DNA of 64,000 nucleotides from Candidatus Omnitrophota bacterium (GCA_037146775.1 JBAWWL010000005.1:33848-97847), one strand, 5' to 3'; counted from the first letter of the stretch, positions 12,090 to 55,490 are shown. Notes: a model not told the origin generated them from the letters alone. Program-made: numbers and translations.

Positions 12090-12094
12090 TAGCC

Positions 12095-39331: not shown

Positions 39332-41061
39332 AATTATTCTTTTTTGTAGTCTTCTTGCTTTTCCCGCTGCTCTGTGTGGCGCAAAGTATAACCTTAGAAC
39401 CAATTACTATAACCACGCAAAATTACGAAGATTCCACGCAAAGCGTAGATGAATTTTCACTTCCGGACATAGAAAACCTTCCCGCATCGTCACCGGAAGA
39501 GCTTCTGGATTATTCTTCCGATGTTAACTTAATAAAACGTGCGCCTTTTGGGCTACAACAGGATGTTTCGATTCGCGGTTCTATCTTTGAGGATGCTTCC
39601 GTGAGCTTGGCCGGCGTTAAGATCAATGATCCGCAGACCGGACATTTTAGCTTAGAAATACCTTTAACCAGCGCGGACTTGAATAAGGTGGCGATCTATA
39701 AGAATTCACAAAAGATAGAATTCACGCCTAAAAAACCAACAGATAAAGGTTTTCTTCTTAAAACTTCTTTTGGCCAGCACGCGCTTTGGGAGAATCTCGC
39801 CTCTGTAAATTTTCCTCTGGCAGGGACAAAAAACAGATTGTCCATAGAACATAAGGTTGCCAAGGGCGGCCGCCGTGACACCGACTTTGATATATATAAT
39901 TTTTCCTATCATTCTTTTTGGCAAGGAGAAGGAAGTGACGCGGAGTTTTTGTTTGGTTTAACCAAAAAGGATTTTGGCGCGGACAGTTTTTATTCTTCGA
40001 GTTTCACTCAAGAAGAGGAACATACCAACCAGAGGTTTTTATTGGCGCGCTTAGGGATAGAGGCAAATTCTTTTAAGCTCAATAACACGGTATATTGGCG
40101 CAGGCACCGCGATAAATTTATTTTAAACCGCGCCAACCCTTCTTTCTATACCAATTTTCACACTACTAACGTATATGGTTTAAAGCAGGAATTTAATTTT
40201 TATAATGATTTATTCGCCGCCTTGAATGTAGAGCAGGAAAAAATAGACAGCACTAATTTGAGCAAACATTATCGCCTGCGAAAGGGCTTAGGTTTGGGTT
40301 TAAAGGACAAACAGTTTGGTAAGTTCCTGCTGGGATTTTCCGGCGGCACCGATTATTACGATAAATGGCGTTACTTAGAGAACGCGCATCTGGGATTAGG
40401 ATATTTACTTAAAGATGAGCTAAAGTTACGTTTTTCTTTTGACCGTATCTGGCGCGTGCCGTCTTTTACGGAATTGTATTATTCTGATCCGGCAAATATA
40501 GGCAATGCCAATCTGGGTGTGCAAAAATCAAACAATTTTGAGGCTGGTTTTGACTATGCGCCTTTTGACTTTTTAAGTACCGCTTACGGATTTTTTTTTC
40601 GAGACCAATCCCACACTATCGATTGGGTAAAGAATAATTCCGCCGATGCCTGGCAGGCGCAGAATGTAGGCAATGTCGGCGCATATGGTTTTGACTTTAG
40701 CTCAAAAGTTAAATTTAAAAATCTTGTTTTAGAGGACGTCTCTTTTAATTATACCTATCTCAATCTCAATAAGAGCAGTCCATATAGTTATTCCAAATAT
40801 GTTTTTGATTATGATAAGCATAAGGTAGTTACCAACCTCGGTTTTAATTACAAAGGGGTCAAAGCCAACGTAATCAGCAATTTTTCAAAACCGGTAGACA
40901 GGGAAAAATACGTTACCTTTGATTTAAGGATAGAAAAACAAATCCGCAACCTTACCCTTGCCTTAGAAGGCACTAATATTTTTAACGCAAATTACGAAGA
41001 AATGAAAGATATTGACGCTACCGGCAGATGGTATAAGCTAAGTTTAGCCTACGCTTTCTAA
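39328..41061 (+). CDS. TonB-dependent-receptor-like outer-membrane beta-barrel protein
   Basis: Signal peptide. Plug-like N-terminal region (IRGS...AGVKINDPQTGH). Alternating beta pattern. C-terminal LSLAYAF with terminal Phe. Confidence 0.6.
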   Translation: MKLFFFVVFLLFPLLCVAQSITLEPITITTQNYEDSTQSVDEFSLPDIENLPASSPEELLDYSSDVNLIKRAPFGLQQDVSIRGSIFEDASVSLAGVKINDPQTGHFSLEIPLTSADLNKVAIYKNSQKIEFTPKKPTDKGFLLKTSFGQHALWENLASVNFPLAGTKNRLSIEHKVAKGGRRDTDFDIYNFSYHSFWQGEGSDAEFLFGLTKKDFGADSFYSSSFTQEEEHTNQRFLLARLGIEANSFKLNNTVYWRRHRDKFILNRANPSFYTNFHTTNVYGLKQEFNFYNDLFAALNVEQEKIDSTNLSKHYRLRKGLGLGLKDKQFGKFLLGFSGGTDYYDKWRYLENAHLGLGYLLKDELKLRFSFDRIWRVPSFTELYYSDPANIGNANLGVQKSNNFEAGFDYAPFDFLSTAYGFFFRDQSHTIDWVKNNSADAWQAQNVGNVGAYGFDFSSKVKFKNLVLEDVSFNYTYLNLNKSSPYSYSKYVFDYDKHKVVTNLGFNYKGVKANVISNFSKPVDREKYVTFDLRIEKQIRNLTLALEGTNIFNANYEEMKDIDATGRWYKLSLAYAF

Positions 41062-41085
41062 CAAAAATTACAAAGGTTTATTGCT

Positions 41086-41607
41086 TTGAGTGATATTGTA
41101 TATTCACAGATTCCTACCGACAACTTTTCTACCGTTAAACTGCCCGATGATTTTTATTTTTGGCTGTGGCGTCCGGCGCTTCTTAAAATAATCCCGCCAG
41201 GATTAAGTTCTAGAAGAATACTCCATTGGTTATGCCATTGGCTACATTTATTTTATAATAAAGATTATGCGGTGTTATATATCGTAAAAAATAATAAAAT
41301 TTTACATCGCTCATGCATAATTCCTTCTTCGATACGCTGCCTGTTTATGGATAAAAAAGACATTTGTGTTTCTATGGTCTGGACAGATCCGAAATACCGC
41401 CGGCAGGGTTTAGCAACATCAGCATTAAGGCAGGTAATGTTTTTGATGAAAAAGCCGGGAAGAGTGTTTTGGTACATTACTCAAGACAGTAACCATGCTT
41501 CTAGTTGGGCCTGCCTAAAAGCTGGATTTAAGCCTGTAGGCAAAGCAAAACGGGTGCGCATTAAGGGTTATTTCTTTGAGCAGTTAACCTTAGAGATATT
41601 TAAGTAA
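41086..41607 (+). CDS. GNAT-family N-acetyltransferase
   Basis: Motif A RRQGLATSAL. No in-frame ATG in the first 88 codons, so TTG start assumed. Confidence 0.45.
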   Translation: MSDIVYSQIPTDNFSTVKLPDDFYFWLWRPALLKIIPPGLSSRRILHWLCHWLHLFYNKDYAVLYIVKNNKILHRSCIIPSSIRCLFMDKKDICVSMVWTDPKYRRQGLATSALRQVMFLMKKPGRVFWYITQDSNHASSWACLKAGFKPVGKAKRVRIKGYFFEQLTLEIFK

Positions 41608-41639
41608 TATGCAGCTTACTTAAGGAATGTAATATTAAT

Positions 41640-41930
41640 TTGATTTATGCATTCACGGCGCTTCCCGATGATGTCGGGATTTCGCTTATTAGCGTATTAA
41701 GGTGCTCAAAAAACCGTGGTATTCACCCCGAGAAATTCCAAAGGAATTTCCGGGACTAAAGTCCTCGTAATCCTTCGGATTGCAGAGGGTACCGCGTGCG
41801 TCTGCCGGCAAGGCAGGGATTATGTGATGCGCCGTTCAGTATTAGCCCAGCAGGCGCCCGTAGGGCAGCCTGCTGGGTAGCCATACTGAAACCTTGGGCT
41901 TTCGCCCGAGGAGCTATGGAAGGCTTCATT
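41640..41930 (+). ncRNA. candidate structured non-coding RNA of unknown class
   Basis: GC-elevated, ORF-poor segment. At least 7 local hairpins, several capped by UUCG/GNRA-type loops. Confidence 0.3.
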
Positions 41931-42107
41931 TACCACTATTTTATAACAACTACAGATATTTTTAGTTTTTATACCGGTATTATCCATGCTCCCTACGTTT
42001 TTATTTTTTCATTGACATCTTTGGCTTAAGGTATACAATATTCCAATTTTTTCATTACACCGCGAAAAGTCTTGTTGTAGAGATTTTTTCATATATACCG
42101 TAATAAA

Positions 42108-43949
42108 ATGTTAAATTTATTCAATATCAGTATATCTTTTTTGCATGACCCACTTTCCTTATTTTTCGTATTTACTATCCTGCTCATCTCTCTGCCTTCG
42201 GTAATTTATTCCCTTGGGTATCTCAAGGGTGAATACTCTTTGAAGAAAAGGTTCTACGGCTTGACGCTTTTTACCATTTTTGTCATTTCGATGTGTTTAG
42301 TGGTAACCGTAGATAACGCGCTTATGTTCCTTATTTGCTGGGAGCTGATGTCGTTGGTTTCTTATTTCCTGGTTATCTTCGACCATGAGAACGAAAAATC
42401 TATACGTGCCGGAACGATTTATGTGGTGATGATGCATATCGGAACCGCCTTTATTGCCGCCGCTTTCCTTATTATGTATAAACATGCCGGCTCTTTTGAT
42501 TTCGCGGCCCTTAAGGCGGCTTGTCAAAGTATGCCTATTGCTACCAAAAACTTACTTTTTGTATTTTTCCTTCTTGGTTTCGGCACTAAAGCCGGGATTG
42601 TGCCTTTGCATATATGGCTTCCTTTGGCACATCCTCAGGCACCCAGTCATATTTCAAGTCTGATGTCGGGAGTGATGATTAAAACCGCTATTTACGGAAT
42701 AATCAGGTTTATTATTTTTGTTCTCGGGGTTAGCTCTTTGTGGTGGGGGAATTTAGTTTTAATCCTGGCCGCGTTTTCCTGCCTTATCGGAGTTATCTAC
42801 GCGCTGATGGAGCACGACATAAAAAAGCTTCTGGCTTATCATAGCGTAGAAAATATCGGAATAATTCTTTTAGGCGTGGGCGCTTGTATGGTATTTTTAC
42901 AATGCAATCTGCCCTATATGGCGGTGTTTTCTCTGGCCGCCGGCTTGTATCATTTGATTAATCACGCTATCTTTAAGAGCCTTCTGTTTCTCTGTGCAGG
43001 AAGCGTATATAAAGTAACCGGAACGCGTGACATGGAAAAGCTCGGAGGCCTCATTAAAAAAATGCCTTGGACTGCCGCCGCCTTTCTTATGGGAGCAATG
43101 GCAATCTCGGCATTACCTCCTCTAAACGGTTTTGTGAGCGAGTGGTTGATCCTGCAGACGTTTTTTTTAGGTATGTTAAAGGTCTCGGGCGGCCTTAAAG
43201 TCTTTTTCGCACTTTGTGCTGCCGCTTTAGCTTTGACCGGAGGCCTGGCGGCTGCCTGCTTCGTAAAAGCTTTCGGTATTACTTTCCTGGCGATGCCAAG
43301 AAGCAGTAAAGCGAAAGAGGCGAAAGAGGTGGTTTTTTCCATGAAGGCGGGTATGGTTTTTTTAAGCGCACTGACGCTTATTTTTGGCCTAGCTGCAGGG
43401 GTAATATTCAAGGTATTGGCGGCAATCGCTCAGAGTATAGTAGCTGCGGACGCTCCTGCGATGAATTTTAGTTTGAACAATTTTACGCTCGCAACCGTCT
43501 CGGACAACCCAACCTATCTTTCTCCTCTGGCGGTTGCTTTGGTGCTTGTCGCGGTGATGGCGGTAACGGCAATTCTGGTTTTTGTAGTGGCAGGCAAGGC
43601 GAGAGTGAAGAAATACGGCACCTGGGATTGCGGGTATTATAAGTTGACCGGCCGCAATGAATATACCTCAACGGCATTTTCCAAGCCTTTCAGGATAGCG
43701 TTTAGTTTCTTTCTGCGGCCTTACAGAAAAACAGAAAAAATTAGAGAATCTTTTTACCACGTCAAAGCTTTCAAGTACGAAACATTTACTACGCCGGTTT
43801 TTAAAAAGTATATATACGCGCCGATTTTGGCTATCACGTTCGGTTCAGCCCGCCTTATGCGCCGGATTCAGCCCGGAAGCATACACTTATATATTGCGTA
43901 TATTTTTGTAACCATAGTCACTTTAATTATTTTTATGAAGATATTTTAA
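42108..43949 (+). CDS. NuoL/HyfB/MnhA-like antiporter-type membrane subunit of an Ehr-type complex
   Basis: 613 aa. About 16 TM helices. PF00361 proton-pumping-subunit pattern (WLPLAHPQAPSHISSLM). Confidence 0.8.
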   Translation: MLNLFNISISFLHDPLSLFFVFTILLISLPSVIYSLGYLKGEYSLKKRFYGLTLFTIFVISMCLVVTVDNALMFLICWELMSLVSYFLVIFDHENEKSIRAGTIYVVMMHIGTAFIAAAFLIMYKHAGSFDFAALKAACQSMPIATKNLLFVFFLLGFGTKAGIVPLHIWLPLAHPQAPSHISSLMSGVMIKTAIYGIIRFIIFVLGVSSLWWGNLVLILAAFSCLIGVIYALMEHDIKKLLAYHSVENIGIILLGVGACMVFLQCNLPYMAVFSLAAGLYHLINHAIFKSLLFLCAGSVYKVTGTRDMEKLGGLIKKMPWTAAAFLMGAMAISALPPLNGFVSEWLILQTFFLGMLKVSGGLKVFFALCAAALALTGGLAAACFVKAFGITFLAMPRSSKAKEAKEVVFSMKAGMVFLSALTLIFGLAAGVIFKVLAAIAQSIVAADAPAMNFSLNNFTLATVSDNPTYLSPLAVALVLVAVMAVTAILVFVVAGKARVKKYGTWDCGYYKLTGRNEYTSTAFSKPFRIAFSFFLRPYRKTEKIRESFYHVKAFKYETFTTPVFKKYIYAPILAITFGSARLMRRIQPGSIHLYIAYIFVTIVTLIIFMKIF

Positions 43950-44017
43950 AAAAGGTAGTTTATTCAAAAAAACGCAAAAACAGTTTCTTTAAAAACAGAT
44001 TGTTAACCATATAACAC

Positions 44018-44935
44018 ATGAGAACAGTATTTAGTATTTTGCAAATCATTATGTTGATAGTCATTGCTCCTTTGGTGAGCGGATTGATTACTAAGATAAA
44101 GAACAATGTGCGTCTGCGCCGCGGGCAAAGTGTATTCCAACCCTACTATAATTTAGCTAAGTTATTTTCTAAAGAAGAGGTGATCTCCGAGCATACTTCT
44201 TGGATATTCAGCGTTACGCCTTACGTGGTGTTTGCTTCGACGGTTACCGCTTTATTCTTGGTGCCGACATTTATAGCGAAGAATCCGCAGGGGTGTATGG
44301 GTGATTTATTTTTATTAGTATTTATTTTATCTTTGGGCCGCTTTTTTCTGGCTTTGGCCGGCTTAGACAGCGGAAGCGCTTTTGGCGGTATGGGTTCTTC
44401 TCGAGAAATGTTTATTTCAAGCTTTGCCGAGCCGGCGGCTATATTGGTATTTTTTGCGGTTTCTTTAAGTGCGGGCAGCACAAATTTAGGTGCGGTAACC
44501 ACAGGTGGATTCAGGCTTTCTTGGTTGGTCGCGGCGGTTTCTCTTTTGCTGGTAGTTTTGGCGGAGACCTCGCGTATACCGGTGGACAATCAGGAAACGC
44601 ACTTAGAACTTACCATGGTCCACGAGGCGATGATTTTAGAATATTCCGGCCGTTCGCTCGCTTTAATCGAGCTTGCGTCTTACGTGAAACAAATTGTCTT
44701 TTTTTCTCTGCTTGGCGCGATTGTCTGGCCTTGTATGGCGGCCGCTTCGGCAGGTTATGCAGAAATCATCGCGGCGCTGGCCGCTTACCTTTTAAAGATA
44801 GCTGGCCTTGTGCTGGTAGTGGCGTTAGTCGAGGTGTCATTGGCGAAGATGCGGCTGTTTAGGGTAGTTGATTTTCTCTATTTCTCTTTTGTTATCGCAT
44901 TGGTAGCCGTAATCGCGGCGGTATTTGGAGTATAA
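44018..44935 (+). CDS. NuoH/HycD-like membrane subunit
   Basis: 305 aa. NuoH-family N-terminus (QPYYNLAKLFSKE) and SSREM motif. Confidence 0.75.
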   Translation: MRTVFSILQIIMLIVIAPLVSGLITKIKNNVRLRRGQSVFQPYYNLAKLFSKEEVISEHTSWIFSVTPYVVFASTVTALFLVPTFIAKNPQGCMGDLFLLVFILSLGRFFLALAGLDSGSAFGGMGSSREMFISSFAEPAAILVFFAVSLSAGSTNLGAVTTGGFRLSWLVAAVSLLLVVLAETSRIPVDNQETHLELTMVHEAMILEYSGRSLALIELASYVKQIVFFSLLGAIVWPCMAAASAGYAEIIAALAAYLLKIAGLVLVVALVEVSLAKMRLFRVVDFLYFSFVIALVAVIAAVFGV

Positions 44936-45575
44936 CATGCATACATATATTTTTCTTTTAGGGATATTGGTGATGACTTATTTTATGATGATGGTAAAGC
45001 GGTTGCCGGCTCTCATCAACGGTTTTCGCTGGCAGTCGTTATTTTTATTTTTGTTAACCCTTTTGCTGGCCAAGAGAGAAGCCGATGGTGCTCTTTATGT
45101 TGTCGCGGGCTTAATTTTTCTTCTAAAGGTTGTGTTGGTCCCGTATTTTTTGTTGCGTATCGTAAAGAGGATAAAAGTAAACGAGAATCTCGGCTTTTTT
45201 ATGAACCCGCAGCTTTCGCTTTTAAGTGGTTTGCTTTTGACATATCTTTCTTATTTGTTTACGTTCAAGGTGATGCTCCTGGCTGATAGGATGCAGAGCG
45301 TTTCTTTTGCGCTTTCTCTGTGCGTGACTTTGATGGGCCTTTTTATAATGATTTTCCGGATGAAGGCGGTAGTACAGATTGTAGGGCTTTTGGTGATGGA
45401 GAACGGCTTATTTCTTACCGCAGTGACTATGTGCGGCGGCATGCCTTTTATTGTTGAACTTTCTACTTTTTTAGATATCTTTATCAGCGTTATCATTTTA
45501 GGAGTTTTTGTTTACCGGATAAATACTCTCTTTACGCACATTGATGTGAATAAACTGGATAGTTTGAGGGGATAA
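44925..45575 (+). CDS. HyfE-like small membrane subunit
   Basis: 216 aa with 6-7 TM helices. Same length class as E. coli HyfE. Operon position. Confidence 0.5.
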   Translation: MEYNMHTYIFLLGILVMTYFMMMVKRLPALINGFRWQSLFLFLLTLLLAKREADGALYVVAGLIFLLKVVLVPYFLLRIVKRIKVNENLGFFMNPQLSLLSGLLLTYLSYLFTFKVMLLADRMQSVSFALSLCVTLMGLFIMIFRMKAVVQIVGLLVMENGLFLTAVTMCGGMPFIVELSTFLDIFISVIILGVFVYRINTLFTHIDVNKLDSLRG

Positions 45576-45607
45576 GTAAATTATGGGCTGTATACGTTCG
45601 AGGTAAG

Positions 45608-47059
45608 ATGCACATATTTTGTATTTTTGCTATTCCTTTGTTGATGATGCTGGGGGCGCTAGGGATTAATAACATTCGTGTCTTGGGGCGCCTAAACGCT
45701 TTTGGCTATGCGGTGATATTGGGATACGCTGCCTTTCTGGCATATACCCTCAAGCAGCCGTTAGTGCTCTTTAATTTTTTCTATATAGACGCTTTAAGCG
45801 CTTTTTTTCTCTTTGTCATAGCTTTGGTTACTTCCGCTGCGGCACTTTTTTCCATAGAGTATATTGCCAAAGATCTTGCCGCGGGCGCTTTTTCGCAAAA
45901 AAAAGCCAAAGGGTACTACCTGCTTTTTAATTTGTTTTCTCTTTCCATGTTTTTTGTACCGGTAGTAAATAACCTGGGAATGGTATGGGTCGGTATCGAG
46001 CTCACTACGCTTGCCTCGGCGTTCTTGGTCGGTTTTTACAATAATAAAGCATCGCTTGAGGCGGCATGGAAATACATTATTATCTGTTCCGTGGGAATAA
46101 TTTTTGCTTTGTTTGGAACGATCATTTTTTATTATACCGCTTCACATCACGCCGGTATCAATAGTCTTAATTGGACCGACATGGCCGCCGGAGCCAAGAA
46201 TTTAAACGCCAACATAGTAAAAATCGCCTTTTTGTTCATTCTGGTGGGTTATGGCACCAAGGCCGGCCTCGCACCCATGCATACCTGGCTTCCCGACGCT
46301 CACAGCCAGGCGATTTCTCCGGTAAGCGCGATGCTTTCCGGCGTGCTATTAAAAACCGCTCTTTACGCGATCTTACGTTTTAATGTGATTACCAATATTT
46401 GTGTTGGCAGCCAATATACCTCAAGGCTTTTTATTTTGTTTGGGCTTATTTCTTTGGGGGTAGCCTGCCTTTTCCTTTTAGTGCAAAAACACATAAAAAG
46501 ATTTTTTGCCTACAGCAGCATCGAACACGTAGGAATAATCAGCGTGGGTTTCGGTATAGGAGGAAGTTTAGGGTTTTATGCCGCATTGTTGCATATTTTT
46601 AACCATGCGGTGACCAAGTCGTTGTTGTTTTTTGCCGCGGCAGATGTGGTAAAAAAATATAAAAAAGATAATATGCATATTATCAAAGGCGTCGTAAATG
46701 CCTTACCGTTTACCGGAATAATGCTTGTCTTGGGCATGTTTGCCATAGCGGGTATGCCCCCGTTTTCCATATTTTTTAGCGAGCTTTTGATATTGATTGC
46801 AGGGTTTTCAAAGGGCGCATACGCGGTTTCAAGCCTGCTTTTACTGTTTATAGTAGTTATTTTCGGCGCGATAATCTTTCATTTGAGCCAGATACTTTTC
46901 GGAAAAAAGCCGCAGGATATGCCGGTAGGTAGAGAAGCGGCCAGCAGCAAGCTCGCTTTTATTATTTTAATGATCTGTATGTGTGTGGTAGGTTTTAGGG
47001 TGCCGGCATTTTTACACAGCTTAATTTCACTAGCTGCAGCAGTATTAATGAAGGTATAG
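45608..47059 (+). CDS. NuoM/NuoN/HyfF-like antiporter-type membrane subunit
   Basis: 483 aa. PF00361 signature (WLPDAHSQAISPVSAMLSG). Confidence 0.8.
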   Translation: MHIFCIFAIPLLMMLGALGINNIRVLGRLNAFGYAVILGYAAFLAYTLKQPLVLFNFFYIDALSAFFLFVIALVTSAAALFSIEYIAKDLAAGAFSQKKAKGYYLLFNLFSLSMFFVPVVNNLGMVWVGIELTTLASAFLVGFYNNKASLEAAWKYIIICSVGIIFALFGTIIFYYTASHHAGINSLNWTDMAAGAKNLNANIVKIAFLFILVGYGTKAGLAPMHTWLPDAHSQAISPVSAMLSGVLLKTALYAILRFNVITNICVGSQYTSRLFILFGLISLGVACLFLLVQKHIKRFFAYSSIEHVGIISVGFGIGGSLGFYAALLHIFNHAVTKSLLFFAAADVVKKYKKDNMHIIKGVVNALPFTGIMLVLGMFAIAGMPPFSIFFSELLILIAGFSKGAYAVSSLLLLFIVVIFGAIIFHLSQILFGKKPQDMPVGREAASSKLAFIILMICMCVVGFRVPAFLHSLISLAAAVLMKV

Positions 47060-47060
47060 T

Positions 47061-48644
47061 ATGGTTTACCAAGATTTATTAAAAGGCATAGGGGAAATTT
47101 GCGGGATACAGCTGCTGGACGTTAGTGAGCGTTACCATGACGAAGTATACGTAAGCGTTCAGAAAGAAGATTTTAAAAAAGCCTGTATAGCGCTGCATAA
47201 ATACCTGCGTTCTCCGGTCATGACGCAGTTTGCCTTAGACAACCGCCAGGAACAGAAAGTTTTTGTTCTGTATTGCGGTTTTATGAGTATAAGATACAAA
47301 AAATGGGTTTTTGTGGTTACTGAAATTCCGGCTGATACCGCGCAATTCGATTCTCTGTCTAAAGAACTCTATTCAGCTACTTTGTTTGAGCGCGAAATTA
47401 AAGAAATGTTTGGCATAGAGCCATGTAACAGTCCCGATACGCGCAGCTTGCGGTTGCATGACGAAGTCTGGCCGAGAGGCCAGTACCCTTTAAGAAAAGA
47501 TTTTAAGACAGGTTTGTCCCAAGCTAATTTATTGGGAGAATATGCTTTTGCTAAAGTTGAGGGTGAGGGCATTTTTGAGGTTCCGGTCGGCCCGGTCCAT
47601 GCGGGTATTATCGCGCCCGGGCATTTTCGTTTTAGCTCGGCAGGCGAGCCGATTATCAATTTGGAAATCAGGCTCGGTTTTACGCATAGAGGAGTAGAAA
47701 AACTTTTTGAAGGTAAAAATATTTTCGAAGCAATAAAGCTTTCGGAGTGTGTCGCGGGCGACGCCGCCTTCGGCCACAGTTGGTCATTTTGCCAGGCAAT
47801 TGAAAAAAACTGCGGCGTAACTGTGCCGAAAAATTCTTCGGCTGCCCGGGCAATCCTTTTAGAGCTGGAGCGGATGTATAATCACGTAAACGATATAGGC
47901 GGTATCGCCATTGATGTGGGGTTTAGTTTTCCTGCGGCTTACGCTTCTTTAATGAAAGAAACGATATTACAATTAAACGAGAAAATTACCGGCAGCCGCT
48001 ACCTAAAAGGAGCGAACACGATAGGCGGAGTAAACTTTGATTTAAACGAAGAAAAGAAAAGACTCATTAAAAGCTCTTTAGGTGCCTTTGCGAAAGATTT
48101 CGAAGAGCTTAAAAACATATTGTTTTCCAGTGTTTCTTTTATGGACAGGGTAGATGGCACCGGTATATTGAGGAAAAAAACCGCAGAGGATTTTGGCGTG
48201 GTAGGCCTTTGTGCCAGAGCCTCCGGGATAGCCGCGGATTTGAGAAAAGATTTTACCGGCATATATGATAAAGTTAAGTTTCATTCAGAGAAACAGGAAA
48301 CAGGGGATGTTTTGGCCAGACTGAATCTGCGGATTCTTGAATGCGAAGAATCTATGCGTTTAATAGAACAATTTTTGCGTATCGTAGGTGGGTCAGAGAA
48401 TAAAATCTTAATCAGGCCGCAACCCAAGGCAGGTTTTGCTTTGGGGTACATAGAAAGCTGGCGCGGCCCGGTGCTCTATTGGGTTAAGATCGATGCTCAA
48501 GGTTTTATTGAACGCTGTAAGATTGTCGACCCTTCATTTCATAACTGGCCGGCTCTTGCGTACGCGGTGTTAGGTAATATTATTCCCGATTTTCCTTTGT
48601 GTAACAAGAGTTTCGATCTGTCATATGCGGGTAACGACCTATAG
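47061..48644 (+). CDS. fused NuoC-NuoD-like / group-4 hydrogenase large-subunit-like protein lacking all four NiFe-ligating cysteines
   Basis: N-terminal 30-kDa-subunit-like domain. GPVHAGIIAPGHFRF block. L1 position reads SECVAGDAAFGH instead of ERxCGxCxxxH. C-terminus SFDLSYAGNDL instead of DPCxxCxxR. Confidence 0.75.
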   Translation: MVYQDLLKGIGEICGIQLLDVSERYHDEVYVSVQKEDFKKACIALHKYLRSPVMTQFALDNRQEQKVFVLYCGFMSIRYKKWVFVVTEIPADTAQFDSLSKELYSATLFEREIKEMFGIEPCNSPDTRSLRLHDEVWPRGQYPLRKDFKTGLSQANLLGEYAFAKVEGEGIFEVPVGPVHAGIIAPGHFRFSSAGEPIINLEIRLGFTHRGVEKLFEGKNIFEAIKLSECVAGDAAFGHSWSFCQAIEKNCGVTVPKNSSAARAILLELERMYNHVNDIGGIAIDVGFSFPAAYASLMKETILQLNEKITGSRYLKGANTIGGVNFDLNEEKKRLIKSSLGAFAKDFEELKNILFSSVSFMDRVDGTGILRKKTAEDFGVVGLCARASGIAADLRKDFTGIYDKVKFHSEKQETGDVLARLNLRILECEESMRLIEQFLRIVGGSENKILIRPQPKAGFALGYIESWRGPVLYWVKIDAQGFIERCKIVDPSFHNWPALAYAVLGNIIPDFPLCNKSFDLSYAGNDL

Positions 48645-48650
48645 AGAAAC

Positions 48651-48724
48651 GATTACACAGATTTTTAGGAATGATTACACAGATTGAGAAATCAGTGTAA
48701 TCTGCATTTAATCGGTGTAATCTT
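48651..48724. promoter_or_regulatory. array of four GATTACAC boxes (two direct, two inverted; 20-22 nt phasing) between the large- and small-subunit genes
   Basis: gattacacagatt at 48651 and 48673. cagtgtaatctg at 48693. cggtgtaatctt at 48713. Confidence 0.55.
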
Positions 48725-48735
48725 ATTTAAAAAAT

Positions 48736-49272
48736 ATGATTCAGATACTTAAAAACAGATTGATAAAAGGCATCGTATCGCAGCCGGTTGAGCTAAAATC
48801 TTTAGTCAAAGATAATCTTGCTGCCGTGGAGCTTGAATCTGTTGGTTCGGAGCTGCAAAAATTAATACGCAAAAAATTCGGCAGGTCTTTACATATCAGG
48901 GAAGTAGACACCGGTTCCTGCGGCGCCTGCGATTCGGAAATAATTTCTACTACTAATCCCCTGTATGATGTGCAGCGTTTCGGTGTCAATTTTGTCGCTT
49001 CGCCCCGTCATGCTGACGCGCTTATGGTTACCGGGCCGGTATCAAAAAATATGCTTGGCGCTTTAAAAAAAACCTATGGGGCTATGCCGGAGCCAAAGTT
49101 TGTAATTACTGTCGGAGATTGCGCTCTTGCCGGAGGGGTATTTAAAGATTCTTATTATACCGCCGGCGGCGTTAATGCGATTCTCCCGGTTGCTCTGCAT
49201 ATTCCGGGTTGTCCGCCAAAACCATTGGAAATAATCACTTCACTGCTTACATTTCTTTCCTGTTGTAAATAA
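48736..49272 (+). CDS. NuoB/HycG-like small subunit with intact [4Fe-4S] ligands
   Basis: GSCGACDSE, GDCALAGG and HIPGCPP motifs. Confidence 0.8.
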   Translation: MIQILKNRLIKGIVSQPVELKSLVKDNLAAVELESVGSELQKLIRKKFGRSLHIREVDTGSCGACDSEIISTTNPLYDVQRFGVNFVASPRHADALMVTGPVSKNMLGALKKTYGAMPEPKFVITVGDCALAGGVFKDSYYTAGGVNAILPVALHIPGCPPKPLEIITSLLTFLSCCK

Positions 49273-49324
49273 CAGCCTTGTGACTTGCTTATTTTTCTAC
49301 TGATGATATATTGGCGCTACGTAT

Positions 49325-50494
49325 ATGAAAAAACAACATATCCATCAATCTGAGCAAAAAAATAATAAGTTTCCTTTTAACGCAATCAAAATCGCTATGT
49401 TCTATGCTATTGTTTTTGTTCTTTTGGCCATTACGGTGTACCTGGCCTGGGTTAACCACAGTAATTTCGAAGATGCCATGATAACTCAGGCGCATAATCA
49501 ACTTTTCCTTATTGCTAAATCGCAGGCGCAGAGCATTGAAGAACATATGGGTGATATTTATGAAGAGTTATCAATAACATCGCAGCAGCCGGCAGTTCAC
49601 GATTTTCTTAAGCAAAAAACACAACGATCTTCCACGGCAGCCCGAGAGAGCTTATTAAGTGCTGCATATAAAGATATACAAAAATTAACCGACTCACTAT
49701 GTTTACTAAACGCAGAAGGAATTGTAGTAGACGCTATGCCGGTTGGTATTATTTCCGTCGGCGATGACTTATCTTCGTTGGCTGAGATAAAAAGTATTAC
49801 CATGCAGCCGCAGGCTGTTTTCAGCAATGTATTTAAGCTTACAAACGGAAAATTGGCAATTGCTTATACGTATCCCGTTATTGATCAAGGCCGGTTCATA
49901 GGCTCGCTCAGAACAGTTATTGTATTAGAGAGGATCCAGCGTCTGGTAGATCATATTAACCGGATCGGAAAAATAAAAGCCTTGGTTGTCGGTTCCGGCC
50001 AGACGCTTATTGTCTATCCTGACTCGCAGTATGTAGGAAAGAATTTTACTTCTGTAATAAAGGAAAGAGCCTTCCGTTCCGGTAGTTTTGATCCGGCTAT
50101 GCTTGCAGAAAAGATGAGCAAGGGCGAAGAAGGGAAGGGGGTTGTGTATTGTTTCTTCGATCAAGTTGCACATATTGAAAAAAACTTGATTGCGTTTATT
50201 CCTATCCATCTTGGCAAAGAGGTATGGTCGATAGCGGCCTTTATGCCATATCAGGAAATCGCCGGCCCCATTCATCGAAACGTGCTCGATAATATTCTTT
50301 TTGTCGGACTTATCTTGCTTATTTTTGTGATAGTCGGTACGGTGATATATATCATGCAGCAAAAAAAAGTAAAGCTCGAAGTCGAAACTCTGGCGCTCAA
50401 TATCATTAATCGCCAGTTACATTCGGATATTAGCGAGCGTAAACGCATAGAAGAAGAGTTCTATAAATCCTTCGGTCGGAAGCCGCGAAAATGA
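49325..50494 (+). CDS. membrane sensor-domain protein (dCache-like periplasmic domain, second TM helix, no output domain)
   Basis: TM1 residues about 25-43. About 260-aa extracytoplasmic domain. TM2 (ILFVGLILLIFVIVGTVIYIM). Ends after a short coiled coil. Confidence 0.5.
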   Translation: MKKQHIHQSEQKNNKFPFNAIKIAMFYAIVFVLLAITVYLAWVNHSNFEDAMITQAHNQLFLIAKSQAQSIEEHMGDIYEELSITSQQPAVHDFLKQKTQRSSTAARESLLSAAYKDIQKLTDSLCLLNAEGIVVDAMPVGIISVGDDLSSLAEIKSITMQPQAVFSNVFKLTNGKLAIAYTYPVIDQGRFIGSLRTVIVLERIQRLVDHINRIGKIKALVVGSGQTLIVYPDSQYVGKNFTSVIKERAFRSGSFDPAMLAEKMSKGEEGKGVVYCFFDQVAHIEKNLIAFIPIHLGKEVWSIAAFMPYQEIAGPIHRNVLDNILFVGLILLIFVIVGTVIYIMQQKKVKLEVETLALNIINRQLHSDISERKRIEEEFYKSFGRKPRK

Positions 50495-50543
50495 TTACGA
50501 TGACATCTTTTTTGTCATAGCCAAAAAACTTTAATTTTTTTTC

Positions 50544-50571
50544 TTGACAAATGATACTAATATGGTATCAT
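50544..50571 (+). promoter_or_regulatory. sigma70-type promoter (TTGACA-16-TATCAT) with embedded palindrome GATACtaatatgGTATC
   Basis: Exact -35. 5/6 -10. Palindrome 50553-50569 within the spacer. Confidence 0.45.
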
Positions 50572-50593
50572 TATAGTGAAAAGGAGGTGTGCC

Positions 50594-50677
50594 ATGAGGA
50601 TAACTATAAGGTATATGTTGCGTCCGGTAGCTCACTGTAAAGAAGGTTGTAGTACGTTGTCCCGGGCAAGACGTTAA
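50594..50677 (+). CDS. 27-aa upstream ORF (possible leader peptide) MRITIRYMLRPVAHCKEGCSTLSRARR
   Basis: AAGGAGG SD 6 nt upstream. Lies between the promoter and the rrf2 gene. Confidence 0.2.
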   Translation: MRITIRYMLRPVAHCKEGCSTLSRARR

Positions 50678-50730
50678 ACTGCCCACCCGTCTTAAAATAT
50701 TGCGATACTATAAAAACAGAAAAGGAAACA

Positions 50731-51129
50731 ATGAAACTAATTACTCGTAACACCGACTATGCTCTGAGATCTATATGTTTTATCGCCCGGCACGAAGAAA
50801 GAACGATTTCGGTTTCGGAATTGGTAAAAGAATTAAAAATACCCCGATCATTCTTAAGAAAGATTCTGCAGATATTGACCAAAAAAGAAATTCTTAAATC
50901 GGCGAGAGGTTTGGGGGGGGGATTTTTGTTGGCTGTACCAACACGCAAGATTCTACTGACAGATTTGATTAAAATATTTCAAGGCCAGTTGAATCTAAAC
51001 GAATGTTTTTTTAAAAAAATGCCATGCCCGAATATGGAAAAATGTATTTTAAGGAAAAAAATAAGTAAAATCGAGCGATATGTATTACGTGAATTGAAAA
51101 CTATTACCATAGCTTCTTTATTGGGATAA
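50731..51129 (+). CDS. Rrf2-family transcriptional regulator with three-Cys Fe-S ligation motif
   Basis: N-terminal wHTH (TDYALRSICFIA). C(103)-x5-C-x5-C pattern (NECFFKKMPCPNMEKC) like IscR/NsrR. Confidence 0.8.
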   Translation: MKLITRNTDYALRSICFIARHEERTISVSELVKELKIPRSFLRKILQILTKKEILKSARGLGGGFLLAVPTRKILLTDLIKIFQGQLNLNECFFKKMPCPNMEKCILRKKISKIERYVLRELKTITIASLLG

Positions 51130-51132
51130 AAC

Positions 51133-51951
51133 ATGGCAAAAAGAAAAATTATTAAAATTGATGAAAAAAAATGTAATGGCTGCGGCCTGTGTATACCGAA
51201 TTGTCCGGAAGGTGCTATCCAGGTTATCAATAATAAAGCGCGTTTAATCAGTGATATATGCTGCGATGGTTTAGGCGCCTGCATCGGTTACTGTCCGCTT
51301 GGTGCAATTACTATTGAAGAAAGAGAAGCCAAAGCTTACGATGAATGGCAGGTAATGGAACAAATGATAAAACAGGGAGAAGAGGTAATAAAAGCGCATC
51401 TCAAACATCTTAAAGAGCACAATCAGGAGAGTTACTTACAGCAAGCCTTAAATTTTTTAAAAGAAAAGAATATAACCGTGTCTATAGATGATAAAAACGA
51501 CAATAAAGCTTGTGCTTGTTCCGGAAGCCAAAGTAGAGATTTGAGTAAGCGGACAGCTTCGTTTTCCGGCACGGTTACTACAGGTTCACAATTAAGGCAA
51601 TGGCCTATTCAACTACATTTGATCAATCCGGCCGCGCATTATTTTAAAAATGCAGACTTACTTATTGCGGCAGATTGTACGCCGTTTACTTTTTCTAACT
51701 TCCATGAACGTTTTTTGAAAGGAAAGATACTTCTTATTTGTTGCCCGAAACTGGATCAAACAAAAGAGTTGTACATAGAAAAATTGACTCAGCTATTCAG
51801 AGATAACGCAATAAAATCAATAACTGTTGTGCACATGGAAGTTCCCTGTTGTTTTGGCTTGGTGAATATAGTTCAAGAGGCGGTGAATCAATCTCAAGAA
51901 AACATGCTTATTAAAGAATACAATATTTCTATCGGTGGAGAAATATTATGA
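51133..51951 (+). CDS. 2x[4Fe-4S] ferredoxin-domain protein with Cys-rich C-terminal domain
   Basis: CNGCGLCIPNCP and CCDGLGACIGYCP cluster motifs. C-terminal CC pairs (ICCPK, VPCCFG). Confidence 0.65.
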   Translation: MAKRKIIKIDEKKCNGCGLCIPNCPEGAIQVINNKARLISDICCDGLGACIGYCPLGAITIEEREAKAYDEWQVMEQMIKQGEEVIKAHLKHLKEHNQESYLQQALNFLKEKNITVSIDDKNDNKACACSGSQSRDLSKRTASFSGTVTTGSQLRQWPIQLHLINPAAHYFKNADLLIAADCTPFTFSNFHERFLKGKILLICCPKLDQTKELYIEKLTQLFRDNAIKSITVVHMEVPCCFGLVNIVQEAVNQSQENMLIKEYNISIGGEIL

Positions 51952-52132
51952 AAATATTTAAGGGGAGATTTTGAAAAATTATTTGATGTGTGGGGTTGCA
52001 AGGTTTATCTCGATGTATCTGAATACTCGGAAAATCTCTCCGATATTTTCCGAGAATACATCGAGATCAATTCAACTAAGTGTTTTTTAGGCAAGGCGCC
52101 GAAAAAACACAAGTTTCATTGAGGAGGTTGTT

Positions 52133-53800
52133 ATGGCAATGTTTTGTCGGCAATGTGAGCAGACTGCCCGGGGAACGGGTTGTAATGTGAAAGGTGTTTG
52201 CGGAAAAAACGAAGATGTAGCCAAACTGCAGGATGTACTTGTGCACAGCCTGAAAGCCATTGCCATATATGGCAATTTAGCGCGCCAGCTGGGAGTAAAA
52301 GACAGGACAGTAGATCATTTTATGATGCAAGGGCTGTTTACTACCGTAACCAATGTGAATTTTTCTCTTCAACGTATTGCCGAGATGATTTATAAATCTC
52401 AAGAAATAAAACAAAAGATAAAAAAGCTGTTTTTGGAAGAACACAAAAAGAAAAACAATAACAATTTTACAGAAACTTTGCCGGATCTAATAAGCTGGGA
52501 GCCGGCAAGTTTCTTGGACGGCCTGCTGCTTCAGGCTCAGCGGGTAGGAATTTCGTCTGGTGAAATAAGCGATGATCTGCGCAGCCTTCAGGAAATGCTC
52601 CTTTACGGGTTAAAGGGAATGGCTGCTTATGCGGATCACGCCTTTATATTAGGTAAAGAAAGTGAAGAAGTAAATGCATTCTTTTTCAAGGCTTTAGCTG
52701 CCCTCAGTAATAATCGGCTCGTCGCTGGAGACTACCTGGCATTATTAATGGAGTGCGGCACGGTAAATTTGAAATGTATGGAAATGCTCGATCAGGCACA
52801 TAATGAACATTTTGGAGCTCCTGTGCCGACTCAGGTTACATTAGGAGTAAGAAAGGGGCCCGCGATTATTGTTTCCGGGCATGATTTGTATGATTTAGAA
52901 CAACTTCTTGAGCAAACAAAGGATAAGGGAATTAATATATATACGCACGGAGAAATGCTTGCCGCTCACGGTTATCCCGGATTGAAAAAATATAAACATT
53001 TAGCCGGACATTTTGGTACTGCCTGGCAAAATCAGCAGAAAGAATTTGATAATATCGCGGCGGTAATATTGATGACAACCAATTGTATTCAGGAGCCGAA
53101 AGTATCCTACAAAGACAGGATATTTACCACTGGCTTAGTTGCCTGGCCGGATGTTATGCATATTGAAGAAAAAGCAGGGAATAAAGATTTCAGCCCGCTT
53201 ATTGTAAAAGCAACACAGCTTGGCGGTTTTATAAATGATTCAATAGAAAAAGAAATTACCGTAGGATTTGGGCATCATGCTGTCTTGGCCGCCGCTGATA
53301 AAATTATTAGCGCAGTCAATGCCGGCCAGATTAAACATTTTTTCTTAATCGGCGGTTGCGACGGCGCAAAGCCTGGAAGGAACTATTACACCGATTTTGC
53401 GCAAAAAGTTCCCAAGGATTGCATGATCCTGACCCTTGCGTGCGGAAAATTTCGTTTTAACCGGCTCGATTTTGGTACAATCGGAGTGTTTCCGAGGTTA
53501 TTGGATTGCGGTCAATGCAACGACGCATATTCTGCGATAAAAATAGCCGTGGCTTTAGCTAATGCATTCAAGTGCAGCGTTAATGAATTACCCCTTTCGC
53601 TAATTCTTTCCTGGTATGAACAAAAAGCAGTGGTTATATTGCTTACTCTATTATCCCTGGGTATAAAAAATATCCGTCTCGGTCCAAGCTTGCCGGCATT
53701 CGTTTCGGCTGGTATACTAAAAATACTGGTAGAACAGTTTGATATAAAACCAATTACTACCGCCGACAACGATCTCAAGGAGATATTGAAAGCGGTATGA
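52133..53800 (+). CDS. hcp: hybrid-cluster protein (hydroxylamine reductase)
   Basis: N-terminal MFCRQCEQT...GCNVKGVCGK Cys motif. 555 aa. Conserved Hcp blocks throughout. Confidence 0.9.
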   Translation: MAMFCRQCEQTARGTGCNVKGVCGKNEDVAKLQDVLVHSLKAIAIYGNLARQLGVKDRTVDHFMMQGLFTTVTNVNFSLQRIAEMIYKSQEIKQKIKKLFLEEHKKKNNNNFTETLPDLISWEPASFLDGLLLQAQRVGISSGEISDDLRSLQEMLLYGLKGMAAYADHAFILGKESEEVNAFFFKALAALSNNRLVAGDYLALLMECGTVNLKCMEMLDQAHNEHFGAPVPTQVTLGVRKGPAIIVSGHDLYDLEQLLEQTKDKGINIYTHGEMLAAHGYPGLKKYKHLAGHFGTAWQNQQKEFDNIAAVILMTTNCIQEPKVSYKDRIFTTGLVAWPDVMHIEEKAGNKDFSPLIVKATQLGGFINDSIEKEITVGFGHHAVLAAADKIISAVNAGQIKHFFLIGGCDGAKPGRNYYTDFAQKVPKDCMILTLACGKFRFNRLDFGTIGVFPRLLDCGQCNDAYSAIKIAVALANAFKCSVNELPLSLILSWYEQKAVVILLTLLSLGIKNIRLGPSLPAFVSAGILKILVEQFDIKPITTADNDLKEILKAV

Positions 53801-53840
53801 TGGTTGGAGGATCGTCACTATTATCTGAAGGAGGTATGCT

Positions 53841-54152
53841 ATGATGATGCCAATGGCAAAATTGCATGGTTTCGCTATGTTTGTTCCGGCTACTCTCTTG
53901 TTGACCGTGAGTTTTTTTGTGCTCGTACAGCTTCGTAAAATCGAAGAGCAAGGGCTAAAATTTTTTGGACATGCGGTCGTTGTACTCCTGTGGCTAAGCG
54001 CGGCGCTCATCTTTTCTACGGGCATGTATAATACATCGAAATGTTGTTCTATGATGTCCGAACGTCAGGGGATGATGGGGCACTCAATGAAATCTATGGG
54101 TAAATGTATGGACAAGACAGGAATGCCGGCAGAAATGAAAGTGCAACAATAA
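53841..54152 (+). CDS. small membrane protein with Met/His/Cys-rich C-terminal tail
   Basis: Two TM helices. Tail KCCSMMSERQGMMGHSMKSMGKCMDKTGMP. GAAGGAGG SD. Confidence 0.4.
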   Translation: MMMPMAKLHGFAMFVPATLLLTVSFFVLVQLRKIEEQGLKFFGHAVVVLLWLSAALIFSTGMYNTSKCCSMMSERQGMMGHSMKSMGKCMDKTGMPAEMKVQQ

Positions 54153-54285
54153 TGTTGTACTGCATGCGCATTTTTGAGAAGATTAACGGGAATAAGAAAA
54201 CCGGGACGACAGTGTTGACGAGTAATGCATGATAACCAATATTTGTTGTGGTTAAGAGATAAAAAACAGAAGCATAGGAGGGATT

Positions 54286-54864
54286 ATGGCTAAGGTACTT
54301 AAGGGCACCAAAACAGAGGCAAATTTGCTGAAGGCGTTCGCAGGGGAGTCTCAAGCGCGTAATAGATATACTTACTTTGCTTCCGCCGCTAAAAAAGAAG
54401 GCTATGAACAGATAGCCAATATTTTTCTTGAGACGGCCGAGAACGAAAAAGAACATGCCAAGGTATTTTTTAAACATCTCGAAGGCGGAGAGCTTGAGAT
54501 TACCGCGCGCTATCCGGCCGGAATTATCAAAGATACCAAATCCAATCTTCAAGAAGCCGCCAACGGAGAGAACGCGGAATGGACAGTTATTTATTCTGAC
54601 TTTGCCCAAGTAGCCAAGAAGGAAGGTTTTCCTGATGTGGTGCGTTCGTTTGAACAGATTGCTAAGGTAGAAAAATTTCATGAGTCACGCTATCGCAAGC
54701 TTATAAGCAACCTTACTGAAAAGGAAGTTTTTAAGAAAAAGCAGTCAGTTAAGTGGCACTGTATAAATTGCGGGTATGTTTTTGAAGGTACCGAAGCGCC
54801 AAAAGAATGTCCTGCGTGTAAGCATCCACAGGCATACTATGAAGTATTGGCGGAAAATTTCTAG
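54286..54864 (+). CDS. rbr: rubrerythrin
   Basis: Ferritin-like diiron domain (E..H repeats). C-terminal rubredoxin-like CINC...CPAC. Confidence 0.9.
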   Translation: MAKVLKGTKTEANLLKAFAGESQARNRYTYFASAAKKEGYEQIANIFLETAENEKEHAKVFFKHLEGGELEITARYPAGIIKDTKSNLQEAANGENAEWTVIYSDFAQVAKKEGFPDVVRSFEQIAKVEKFHESRYRKLISNLTEKEVFKKKQSVKWHCINCGYVFEGTEAPKECPACKHPQAYYEVLAENF

Positions 54865-54869
54865 AGCGT

Positions 54870-55295: not shown

Positions 55296-55404
55296 AAATA
55301 AGGAAAAGATAGGCCAGGCAAGCATTTTTGTATCCTTGTAAAAGCAGCGCAAATATGTTATATACAAGGTGTAAAGTGTAAAAGTGACAATTTGGTATTT
55401 ACCC

Positions 55405-55490
55405 AGTGAAAAGGCAAACCAAGAGTAATCTTGGGACGCAAAGCTAAAGGTCCCGCGAGTAGCGGGAAGCCTGGCTGCCAAAGGGGAGGA
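55405..55490 (+). promoter_or_regulatory. c-di-GMP-I (GEMM) riboswitch aptamer
   Basis: GGCAAACC + 12-nt GNRA hairpin (aagaGUAAucuu) + GGGACGCAAAGC in the same order and spacing as the Vc2 aptamer. Followed by a P2-like hairpin cccgc-gagua-gcggg. Confidence 0.75.

Follow-up and report, generated by a model that had tools for sequence, protein, structure and literature searches.

In a 64,000-nucleotide (nt) stretch of a Candidatus Omnitrophota metagenome-assembled genome (MAG) (GCA_037146775.1 JBAWWL010000005.1:33848-97847), which we call the window, six open reading frames (ORFs) on the plus strand span positions 42108 to 49272, with intergenic gaps of -11 to 91 nt. The locus they form, here designated ehrABCDLS, is almost certainly a member of the known Ehr (energy-converting-hydrogenase-related) family. 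A first-pass annotation had proposed a six-gene operon at this place, with NuoL-, NuoH-, HyfE-, NuoM/N-, fused NuoC-NuoD- and NuoB-like products and the gene order of an energy-converting hydrogenase. The ORFs and their Pfam and NCBIfam matches (Table 1) agree with these identities, and their order matches hyf B-C-E-F-G-I, a hyf operon from which hyfA, hyfD and hyfH are missing.

Table 1. Features of the ehr locus, in positions of the window (aa, amino acids; HMM, hidden Markov model)
Feature	Position	Strand	Basis or remark
ehrA, HyfB/HycC/NuoL-like antiporter-like subunit, 613 aa	42108-43949	+	Pfam Proton_antipo_M, NCBIfam HyfB
ehrB, HycD/HyfC/NuoH-like subunit, 305 aa	44018-44935	+	Pfam NADHdh
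ehrC, HyfE-like membrane subunit	44925-45575	+	NCBIfam NF008556, below cut-off
ehrD, HyfF/NuoN-like antiporter-like subunit, 483 aa	45608-47059	+	HyfF, Proton_antipo_M
ehrL, fused NuoC-like/NuoD-HycE-like large subunit, 527 aa	47061-48644	+	Complex1_30kDa, Complex1_49kDa
N-terminal NiFe motif remnant, SECVAGDAAFGHS	47742-47780	+	Cys1 replaced by A232, Cys2 by A235; HycE and MbhL alignment
C-terminal NiFe motif remnant, NKSFDLSYAGNDL	48603-48641	+	Cys3 replaced by S521, Cys4 by G524; alignment with HycE DPCYSCT
ehrS, HycG/MbhJ/NuoB-like small subunit, 178 aa	48736-49272	+	Pfam Oxidored_q6
Putative HycF/NuoI-like vestige, N-terminal stub MIQILKNRLIKGIVS fused to ehrS	48736-48780	+	Clade-level HMM evidence
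Likely operon promoter, TTGACA-16-TACAAT	42012-42039	+	11 of 12 positions; top sigma-70-like match in 41000-51200
Cache-domain membrane protein	49325-50494	+	Pfam dCache_1, HK-GC-Chemotax_sensor; sensor domain, no recognisable output domain

The large subunit, EhrL, joins a NuoC-like part (47151-47510; PF00329) to a NuoD/HycE-like part (47577-48641; PF00346). When compared by phmmer with proteins of solved structure, it scored 220 bits against HycE (7z0s_E; E=5.7e-64), 140 bits against MbhL (E=1e-39), 134 bits against Nqo4 (E=5e-38) and 91 bits against MbsL. In the alignment with HycE, the motif RVCGICGFAHS falls on ECVAGDAAFGHS and the motif DPCYSCT on DLSYAGN, and the C terminus of EhrL coincides with the end of mature HycE. 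Both strings that the first-pass annotation had quoted for these sites are present, and its claim that the four NiFe cysteines are replaced, not shifted, is borne out by this alignment and by the fixation of the replacements among the homologues described below.

EhrL is 100% identical to an NCBI protein from an Omnitrophota MAG labelled 'NADH-quinone oxidoreductase subunit C', and the next-best 119 homologues, at 58 to 76% identity, come almost all from Omnitrophota. Across these 120 proteins position 232 is S, A or T, with C in eight, and position 235 is S, A or T. G233 is found in 119, D234 in 118, S521 in 119 and G524 in 118 of them, while E229, N515, K516, S517, F518, Y522, D526 and L527 are invariant. 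In place of Arg230, this Omnitrophota clade usually has Cys (97 of 120). The fixed replacement residues and the motifs that flank them therefore point to purifying selection, not to decay. Tyr87 and His38 of T. thermophilus Nqo4, which we take to be the quinone ligands of complex I, align with G233 and I184, respectively. Because both the NiFe cysteines and the quinone ligands are missing, the site is like neither that of a hydrogenase nor that of complex I. These alignments show that EhrL is unable to bind a NiFe cofactor.

The small subunit, EhrS, has its cluster ligands at C62 (48919-48921), C65 (48928-48930), C129 (49120-49122) and C159 (49210-49212), in the hydrogenase-style arrangement CxxC...C...CPP, and they align with the cluster ligands of MbhJ and HycG; the four [4Fe-4S] ligands that had been ascribed to the NuoB-like subunit are thus present. 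EhrS scored 125 bits against MbhJ, 120 bits against HycG and 65 bits against MbsJ. All of 121 EhrS proteins from the Omnitrophota clade have C62, C65 and C159, and at least 90% of them have C129. The single [4Fe-4S] cluster of EhrS is the sole predicted redox centre of the window complex. Family-wide, the proximal-cluster cysteines are kept in 67 of 79 EhrS proteins, and where they are lost, D, T, N, E or G stands in their place. The lineages so affected are Methanosarcina (loci L074, L077 and L083), three lineages of the candidate phyla radiation (CPR; L043, L057 and L072), Endomicrobiales, Bdellovibrionales, Thermoleophilia and one four-Cys member of the Chloroflexota; loci L041, L061, L062 and L022 are also of this kind. 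Apart from that of the four-Cys Chloroflexota locus, the partner EhrL proteins keep SGD and NKSxxLSYxGxDL. Such modules are complex-I-like assemblies without a recognisable redox cofactor.

The membrane-arm subunits likewise resemble those of hydrogenases. EhrA scored 193 bits against Proton_antipo_M, 266 bits against HycC (7z0s_C) and, among NCBIfam profiles, 649 bits against HyfB compared with 177 bits against NuoL; the HyfB profile is entered at position 71. Since its homologues are equally long, at 610 to 613 amino acids, we regard the ehrA gene as intact. EhrB scored 125 bits against NADHdh, and 129 bits against HycD (7z0s_D) compared with 34 bits against ND1 of complex I. EhrD scored 474 bits against NCBIfam HyfF and 174 bits against Proton_antipo_M. 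EhrC, with 216 amino acids from a TTG start or 200 from an alternative ATG at 44973, matched NCBIfam NF008556 (HyfE) at E=1.8e-23 and 83.5 bits, where the cut-off is 136; it has no Pfam match and no match among solved structures, and a gene of its type occupies the same position in nearly all family loci. E79, K161, E248, K290 and E345 of EhrA are invariant in 67 to 70 of 70 family loci, as are E183, D190, E197, E203 and E208 of EhrB in 72 to 73 of 73. E131, K218 and K337 of EhrD are invariant across 80 loci; position 392 is Glu in 69 of them and Lys in the other 11. The ion-translocation apparatus, as judged from these charged residues of EhrA, EhrD and EhrB, is intact. Searches with Pfam and NCBIfam detected none of the Mrp subunits B, C, E, F and G, and the window also lacks NuoA, NuoJ and NuoK of the canonical kind.

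An exhaustive search of 1.84 billion representative sequences with EhrL returned 908 proteins at E<=1e-30, and the best 150 of these 908 (50%-cluster representatives) were scored. Some 120 of them lack the cysteines and have in common the signature xSGDx...NKSFxLSYxGxDL; 21 have all four cysteines and two more have three. The four-Cys relatives read ERxCGxC...NKSFELCYxCxDR and have no C-terminal extension. In a neighbour-joining tree of 136 representatives (distance-based and rough, and built without the HydDB references), the window EhrL lies inside the Cys-less clade, beside and not within a 19-member four-Cys clade. By their residues at positions 185 and 230, the Omnitrophota EhrL proteins form a derived branch of the Ehr family.

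A one-genome-per-species scan found 80 loci across many phyla, among them Nitrospirota, Acidobacteriota, Verrucomicrobiota, Rokubacteria, Chloroflexota, Firmicutes, CPR phyla and other bacteria, and Thaumarchaeota, Methanosarcinales, Methanomassiliicoccales and other archaea. Synteny was recorded in 85 loci: the order A-B-C-D-L-S was seen in 51 and S-A-B-C-D-L in 19, a total of 70 loci that span more than 15 bacterial and archaeal phyla, and the remaining 15 were cut by a contig end. Six Omnitrophota-clade genomes carry the same six genes, with flanks that mostly differ; those of the window and of locus L086 are partly shared, with a ThiI-like gene upstream and rubrerythrin, Rrf2 and Hcp genes downstream. 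Clustering of the flanks of 83 loci yielded an ArsR-type regulator in 10 loci and otherwise generic families only. This ArsR/SmtB-family helix-turn-helix regulator lies directly upstream of the module on the same strand (L026, L032, L049, L050, L053, L055, L081, L085 and others). Two Nitrospirota contigs (L024 and L082) have two tandem Ehr modules each, ABCDLS followed by ABCDL, and L014 has a second, partial set in a different order.

The first-pass annotation had further stressed that the operon lacks a NuoI-like subunit and a donor module. A search of the 64 kb for CxxCxxCxxxC found no two-cluster ORF of NuoI type within the operon or next to it, the flanks of the window operon and of its counterparts in the five other Omnitrophota-clade genomes hold no NuoI-type gene, and there is no hyp, NuoEFG or formate dehydrogenase (FDH) gene among the ORFs of the window. 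The absence therefore stands. It is not peculiar to this locus, since it is the commonest state in the family, and it is probably not complete, since a NuoI-like vestige appears to be present in the NuoB-like gene. The sole ORF with a CxxCxxCxxxC motif (51133-51951) has one Fer4 motif and an AF_0155 domain; we rejected it as NuoI because it belongs to an Rrf2-Hcp gene cluster and is absent from the corresponding cluster of L086, the closest relative with long flanks.

We scored the state of the HycF-like subunit across the family from the N termini of the small subunits and from alignment to one free-standing HycF-like ORF. A separate HycF-like gene lies between ehrL and ehrS in five loci (state i). 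An eight-Cys HycF-like domain is fused to the N terminus of EhrS in seven Cys-less and four four-Cys loci (state ii). A fused domain with one cluster is found in 17 Cys-less loci and in one four-Cys locus, L076 (state iii). Some 41 short forms, including that of the window, have only a peptide of about 15 to 20 residues, of the type MFRILKKSLKTGVVT, before the HycG-like domain (state iv). The full two-cluster domain is kept in 11 Cys-less loci (7 fused, 4 separate). The four-Cys members other than L076 have a HycF-like domain, either free-standing or as part of EhrS, that retains six to eight of the eight cysteines. In state iii, Cys4 of motif 1 and Cys1-3 of motif 2 are kept, and Cys1-3 of motif 1 and Cys4 of motif 2 are gone; by ferredoxin topology the four retained residues are all the ligands that one cluster needs. 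To judge by the ligands of Nqo9, this is presumably the cluster adjacent to the proximal one. The existence of 11 two-cluster and 17 one-cluster Cys-less loci indicates that the wire was shortened by complete-cluster steps and not by random loss of cysteines. These data suggest that the HycF/NuoI-like subunit was not simply lost but is graded across the family, from a free subunit through two-cluster and one-cluster fusions to a stub. This graded loss, together with the stub, is new in this analysis.

The derivation of the stub from HycF is supported at the level of the clade and the family. In a set of 13,526 ORFs, an HMM of the short-form EhrS N terminus matched the free-standing HycF-like proteins of L008 (E=3.3e-6), L073 (E=6e-4) and L014 (E=9e-3), as well as the N termini of HycF-HycG fusions. 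The L008 protein itself aligns with E. coli HycF starting at residue 1 (E=1.6e-26), and EhrS has no stub in loci that have a separate HycF gene. In the reverse direction, an HMM of true HycF N termini matched 80 of 120 Omnitrophota EhrS proteins, nearly always from residue 1 to 4 (best E=9e-5); it missed the EhrS of the window. A 21-position profile retrieved no HycF from the PDB, the hydrophobic moment of the stub is unremarkable, and an AlphaFold2 monomer model, with a pLDDT (predicted local distance difference test) of about 50 over residues 1 to 30, gave no support. Because these direct tests on the window sequence gave no support, the claim that the first 15 or so residues of EhrS are a remnant of the HycF/NuoI N terminus is made for the clade and family, not for this sequence alone. 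The stub would be the sole part of HycF retained. In the FHL structure the extreme N terminus of HycF is a short helix, amphipathic and lying on the surface of the membrane, which every solved member of the superfamily has (PMC9474812), and the surviving stub would point to an interface indispensable to the whole superfamily.

The name Ehr was reportedly given by Coppi in 2005 to genes of Geobacter sulfurreducens (GSU0739-0745), and Ehr complexes are said to have been surveyed by Marreiros et al. in 2013. The family members found here include those of Nitrospira, Thaumarchaeota, CPR, Elusimicrobia and Desulfotomaculum, taxa for which the literature uses this name. Ehr has been reported in Nitrospira (PMC10284858), ammonia-oxidising archaea (PMC10432482), CPR (PMC7304191) and Elusimicrobia (bioRxiv 765248), and a six-gene, four-Cys cluster of Desulfotomaculum ruminis was also termed Ehr (PMC3569383). 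The Geobacter complex, described as having a NuoL-like EhrA, a HyfE-like EhrC, EhrL and EhrS (PMC7894505), resembles that of the window in combining a CxxC-less group-4-like large subunit with NuoB-, NuoL-, NuoH- and HyfE-like subunits and a second antiporter-like subunit, a likeness by published subunit description, with no Geobacter locus among those of our scan. The grouping with Ehr made in the first-pass annotation is upheld by these taxa and by the matching subunit list. Its description of such complexes as biochemically uncharacterised also agrees with the literature, which offers only proteomics and hypotheses; we found no account of Ehr in Omnitrophota in the literature searched.

Among hydrogenases, those of group 4f type, such as Desru_3260-3265 of D. 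ruminis, share with the window the six-gene order, 35 to 42% identity in the large subunit and the C-terminal frame NKSF(E/N)L-Y---D without an extension. Unlike the window complex, they retain ERxCGxC and LCYxC and, in most cases, a one- or two-cluster HycF-like domain that is fused or adjacent to the small subunit. The E. coli formate hydrogenlyase (FHL) Hyc (PDB 7Z0S) provides the best solved match for four subunits, through HycC, HycD, HycE and HycG, with Pyrococcus membrane-bound hydrogenase (MBH) ranking next and complex I well behind. HycE is a NuoC-NuoD fusion like EhrL, and the N-terminal helix of HycF would survive in the window as the stub. In contrast to Hyc and Hyf, the window lacks the NiFe cysteines, the body of HycF, HycB, FdhF, HyfA, HyfD, the HycI-cleavage peptide and, in EhrA, the first 65 or so residues of HyfB. 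The MBS/Mbx (6U8Y) and MBH (6CFW) complexes of Pyrococcus furiosus are hydrogenase-derived complex-I-like ion pumps, as the window complex probably is too; they differ from Ehr in having both a complete Mrp module and a NuoI-like subunit with two clusters. Yu et al. reportedly showed in 2020 that MBS has lost NiFe chemistry and that the region of its proximal cluster carries out sulfane sulfur reduction, which makes it a precedent for a relative turned to different catalysis. MBS is distant from the window complex, as the scores of MbsL and MbsJ given above indicate. With complex I (Nuo/Nqo) and Mrp, the window shares homologous NuoB-, C-, D-, H- and L/M/N-type modules and, in EhrA and EhrD, the pattern of Glu in transmembrane helix (TM) 5, Lys in TM7 and Glu or Lys in TM12; it lacks the NADH module, the N6a and N6b clusters, the quinone ligands and MrpB/C/E/F/G. 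Taken together, these comparisons suggest that the Ehr complex was derived from a [NiFe] hydrogenase of the Hyf/group 4f type.

We propose that the Ehr complex moves H+ or Na+ across the membrane. With the HycF core gone, the cluster of EhrS would lie exposed and could exchange electrons directly with a soluble low-potential carrier, e.g., ferredoxin. Redox-linked changes of protonation in the remodelled, metal-free pocket of EhrL (E229, S/A232, G233, D234, S521 and Y522) would reach EhrA and EhrD by way of the acidic EhrB loop, much as happens in FHL, MBH and complex I. We consider ion translocation by the window complex probable, and its coupling through the single EhrS cluster a tentative proposal about which we have some doubt. 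The explanation as a whole, comprising identity, ion translocation and single-cluster coupling, is one that we slightly favour, as a compromise between the confidence in its parts. Coupling through a single cluster is favoured because that cluster is invariant in the Omnitrophota clade. The four-Cys locus with one HycF-type cluster implies that a real hydrogenase of the family can run on a shortened wire, and the Cys-less relatives with complete one- or two-cluster HycF domains suggest electron flow to a Cys-less pocket.

Several observations weigh against this proposal. There is no recognisable acceptor site: equivalents of Nqo4 Tyr87 and His38 are absent, and EhrB is HycD-like, not NuoH-like. 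Glu185 of the beta1-beta2 loop, which is E in 137 of the 150 family representatives, is G, A or P in the Omnitrophota clade. No recurrent partner gene emerged from the clustering of 2,204 flanking ORFs of the 83 loci. The retention of complete sets of cluster ligands could reflect folding stability instead of electron transfer. Lastly, 11 to 12 of the 79 EhrS proteins lack the proximal-cluster cysteines and yet come from loci with all six genes and with the pocket signature in EhrL; the family can therefore carry out its core function without a known redox cofactor.

The cluster-less loci, with their full architecture and pocket motifs, are also an argument for a redox-independent cation/proton antiporter of Mrp type, in which EhrL and EhrS would form a structural or gating cap and the cluster would serve folding or redox sensing. 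The presence of the family in CPR bacteria (L043, L051, L057 and L072), the progressive loss of the HycF-like wire, the lack of a donor or acceptor gene in cis and the fact that no other feature is as invariant as the charged residues in the membrane arm are all consistent with such a function. However, the cluster ligands are kept in the Omnitrophota clade and in most loci family-wide, the one- and two-cluster Cys-less loci are hard to explain without electron flow, and homologues of MrpB, C, E, F and G are absent. We also know of no precedent for a NuoB/D/H arm that works without redox chemistry, and we regard the antiporter as the main rival, if an unlikely one. A different solution to the missing donor is that the complex is a universal adaptor for an electron-input enzyme encoded elsewhere, for example an FDH with NuoE/F-like subunits, that docks on EhrS in the former place of HycF. 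A supercomplex of FDH and Ehr has been hypothesized in Margulisbacteria and Saganbacteria (PMC6349859), Geobacter has higher levels of its Ehr subunits on formate (PMC7894505), and the ancestry from formate hydrogenlyase-type enzymes would suit this role. Against this, there is no FDH, NuoE/F or other such redox gene in the 64 kb, no gene for an input enzyme adjoins the module in the six Omnitrophota-clade loci, and none recurs in the 83 loci; moreover, the FdhF/HycB interface of FHL needs the body and the C terminus of HycF (PMC9474812), which are deleted in the window. An adaptor of this kind is thus improbable.

The labels in public records invite two further readings. That the locus encodes a genuine respiratory complex I, or an NDH-1-type NADH- or ferredoxin:quinone oxidoreductase, is what its NCBI labels ('NADH-quinone oxidoreductase subunit C/B') and complex I Pfam domains would imply, and Seymour et al. 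scored Omnitrophota complex I by PF00346 alone (PMC10066038), which EhrL would satisfy. This is very improbable, as NuoEFG, a two-cluster NuoI, canonical NuoA, NuoJ and NuoK and the quinone ligands are all absent and the subunits score far better against Hyc, Hyf and Mbh proteins than against those of complex I. A [NiFe] hydrogenase with shifted or alternative ligands might be read from a faint PF00374 match of EhrL (24 bits), from the JGI label 'Ni,Fe-hydrogenase III large subunit' and from the frequent Cys at position 230. That residue is, however, the only Cys near the site, the C-terminal pair is S and G in 118 to 119 of 120 homologues, and the window has no hyp genes, while a decaying pseudo-operon is at odds with six intact ORFs and with motifs whose conservation family-wide indicates purifying selection. 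We give either of these last two possibilities hardly any weight and are confident that the window complex is not a hydrogenase.

Ehr sits between group 4 hydrogenases and complex I and occurs in nitrifiers, Acidobacteria, methanogens and CPR bacteria and, as found here, in most sampled Omnitrophota relatives. Public records name its genes as subunits of NADH-quinone oxidoreductase or hydrogenase-3; with such labels, and with scoring by PF00346 alone, genomes like these may be credited with more respiratory or H2 metabolism than they have. The graded states of the family (free HycF, two-cluster fusion, one-cluster fusion, stub and no cluster) provide natural controls for a requirement for electrons. 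If a hydrogenase wire was dismantled stepwise, from three clusters to two, one and none with the distal ones first, while the membrane arm and the metal-free pocket stayed under strong selection, the one-cluster grade of the window would follow an undescribed bioenergetic principle, a speculative idea which we think rather doubtful. It would be either a single-cluster pump fed straight by ferredoxin or a redox-free complex-I-like ion mover with the former active-site pocket as its gate.

With regard to transcription, the promoter block TTGACAT...AAGGTATACAATATTyCAATTTTTT is also found upstream of the orthologous operon of L086, whose EhrL is only 65% identical. An in-frame ORF upstream of ehrA (41796-42029) and the late entry into the HyfB profile had raised the idea that ehrA is truncated or split; we rejected it because of the equal length of the homologues and because the conserved promoter lies between the two ORFs. 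No Rfam match to a riboswitch or leader that might reveal a ligand was found upstream of the operon. The Cache-domain gene starts 52 nt past ehrS and is possibly co-transcribed with ehr, since no terminator-like site lies between the two and a strong promoter-like site follows only at 50544-50571. It is absent from the equivalent position in L002, L004, L005 and L086 and hence lies outside the conserved module. In two other loci, a leader of about 80 nt lies directly upstream of ehrA (L004, 5055-5137; L005, 4575-4660). The two leaders are about 88% identical where the EhrL proteins are 73% identical, read ACGAGCAyAGGCyTAACCGCGTTTTCAAA...TTGAAArCGTGTCCTTCTTACCCGTTAAAAA, have no Rfam match and are absent from the window; they may represent a cis-regulatory RNA or an ehr operator of that sub-clade.

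Between a GNAT gene and the ehr promoter, a GC-rich element of about 260 nt (41655-41915, plus strand) is predicted to fold into multiple hairpins with GNRA- and UUCG-type loops (minimum free energy, -134 kcal/mol; z=-7.0 on the plus strand and -6.0 on the minus strand). Nothing in Rfam matches it, neither the rest of the window nor any of 88 related loci contains a copy, and two metagenome scans gave no homologue, one chance match aside. We rejected it as an ehr leader, as it lies upstream of the promoter and is absent from other loci; it is a candidate for a structured RNA of an unknown kind or for an inserted element.

Downstream of the operon, a plus-strand cluster (50731-55295) encodes an Rrf2 regulator, the Fe-S protein with one Fer4 motif and an AF_0155 domain, a hybrid cluster protein (Hcp), a rubrerythrin and an RF-1-domain (ArfB-like) protein. 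L086 also has rubrerythrin, Rrf2, Hcp and RF-1 genes just downstream of ehr, and because the adjacency is shared it appears to be inherited in this lineage. Further along the same strand, NifU and NifS (Fe-S cluster assembly) are followed by a second Rrf2-family, IscR-like regulator (58165-60763); with these and OsmC (56501-56896), genes for Fe-S and oxidative-stress functions are plentiful downstream of ehr. At 55403-55482 on the plus strand, a c-di-GMP-I riboswitch (Rfam RF01051; 63.7 bits, E=3.9e-10) precedes two small ORFs, 55588-55857 and 55832-56371, neither of which belongs to a Pfam family. At the other end of the window, a type IV pilus cluster (3642-15133, plus strand) has two genes for PilB-like ATPases (4121-5851 and 6340-8019), with a gene for a '23S rRNA intervening sequence protein' (5891-6256) between them; genes for PilC, pilin, PilM, PilN and secretin come next.

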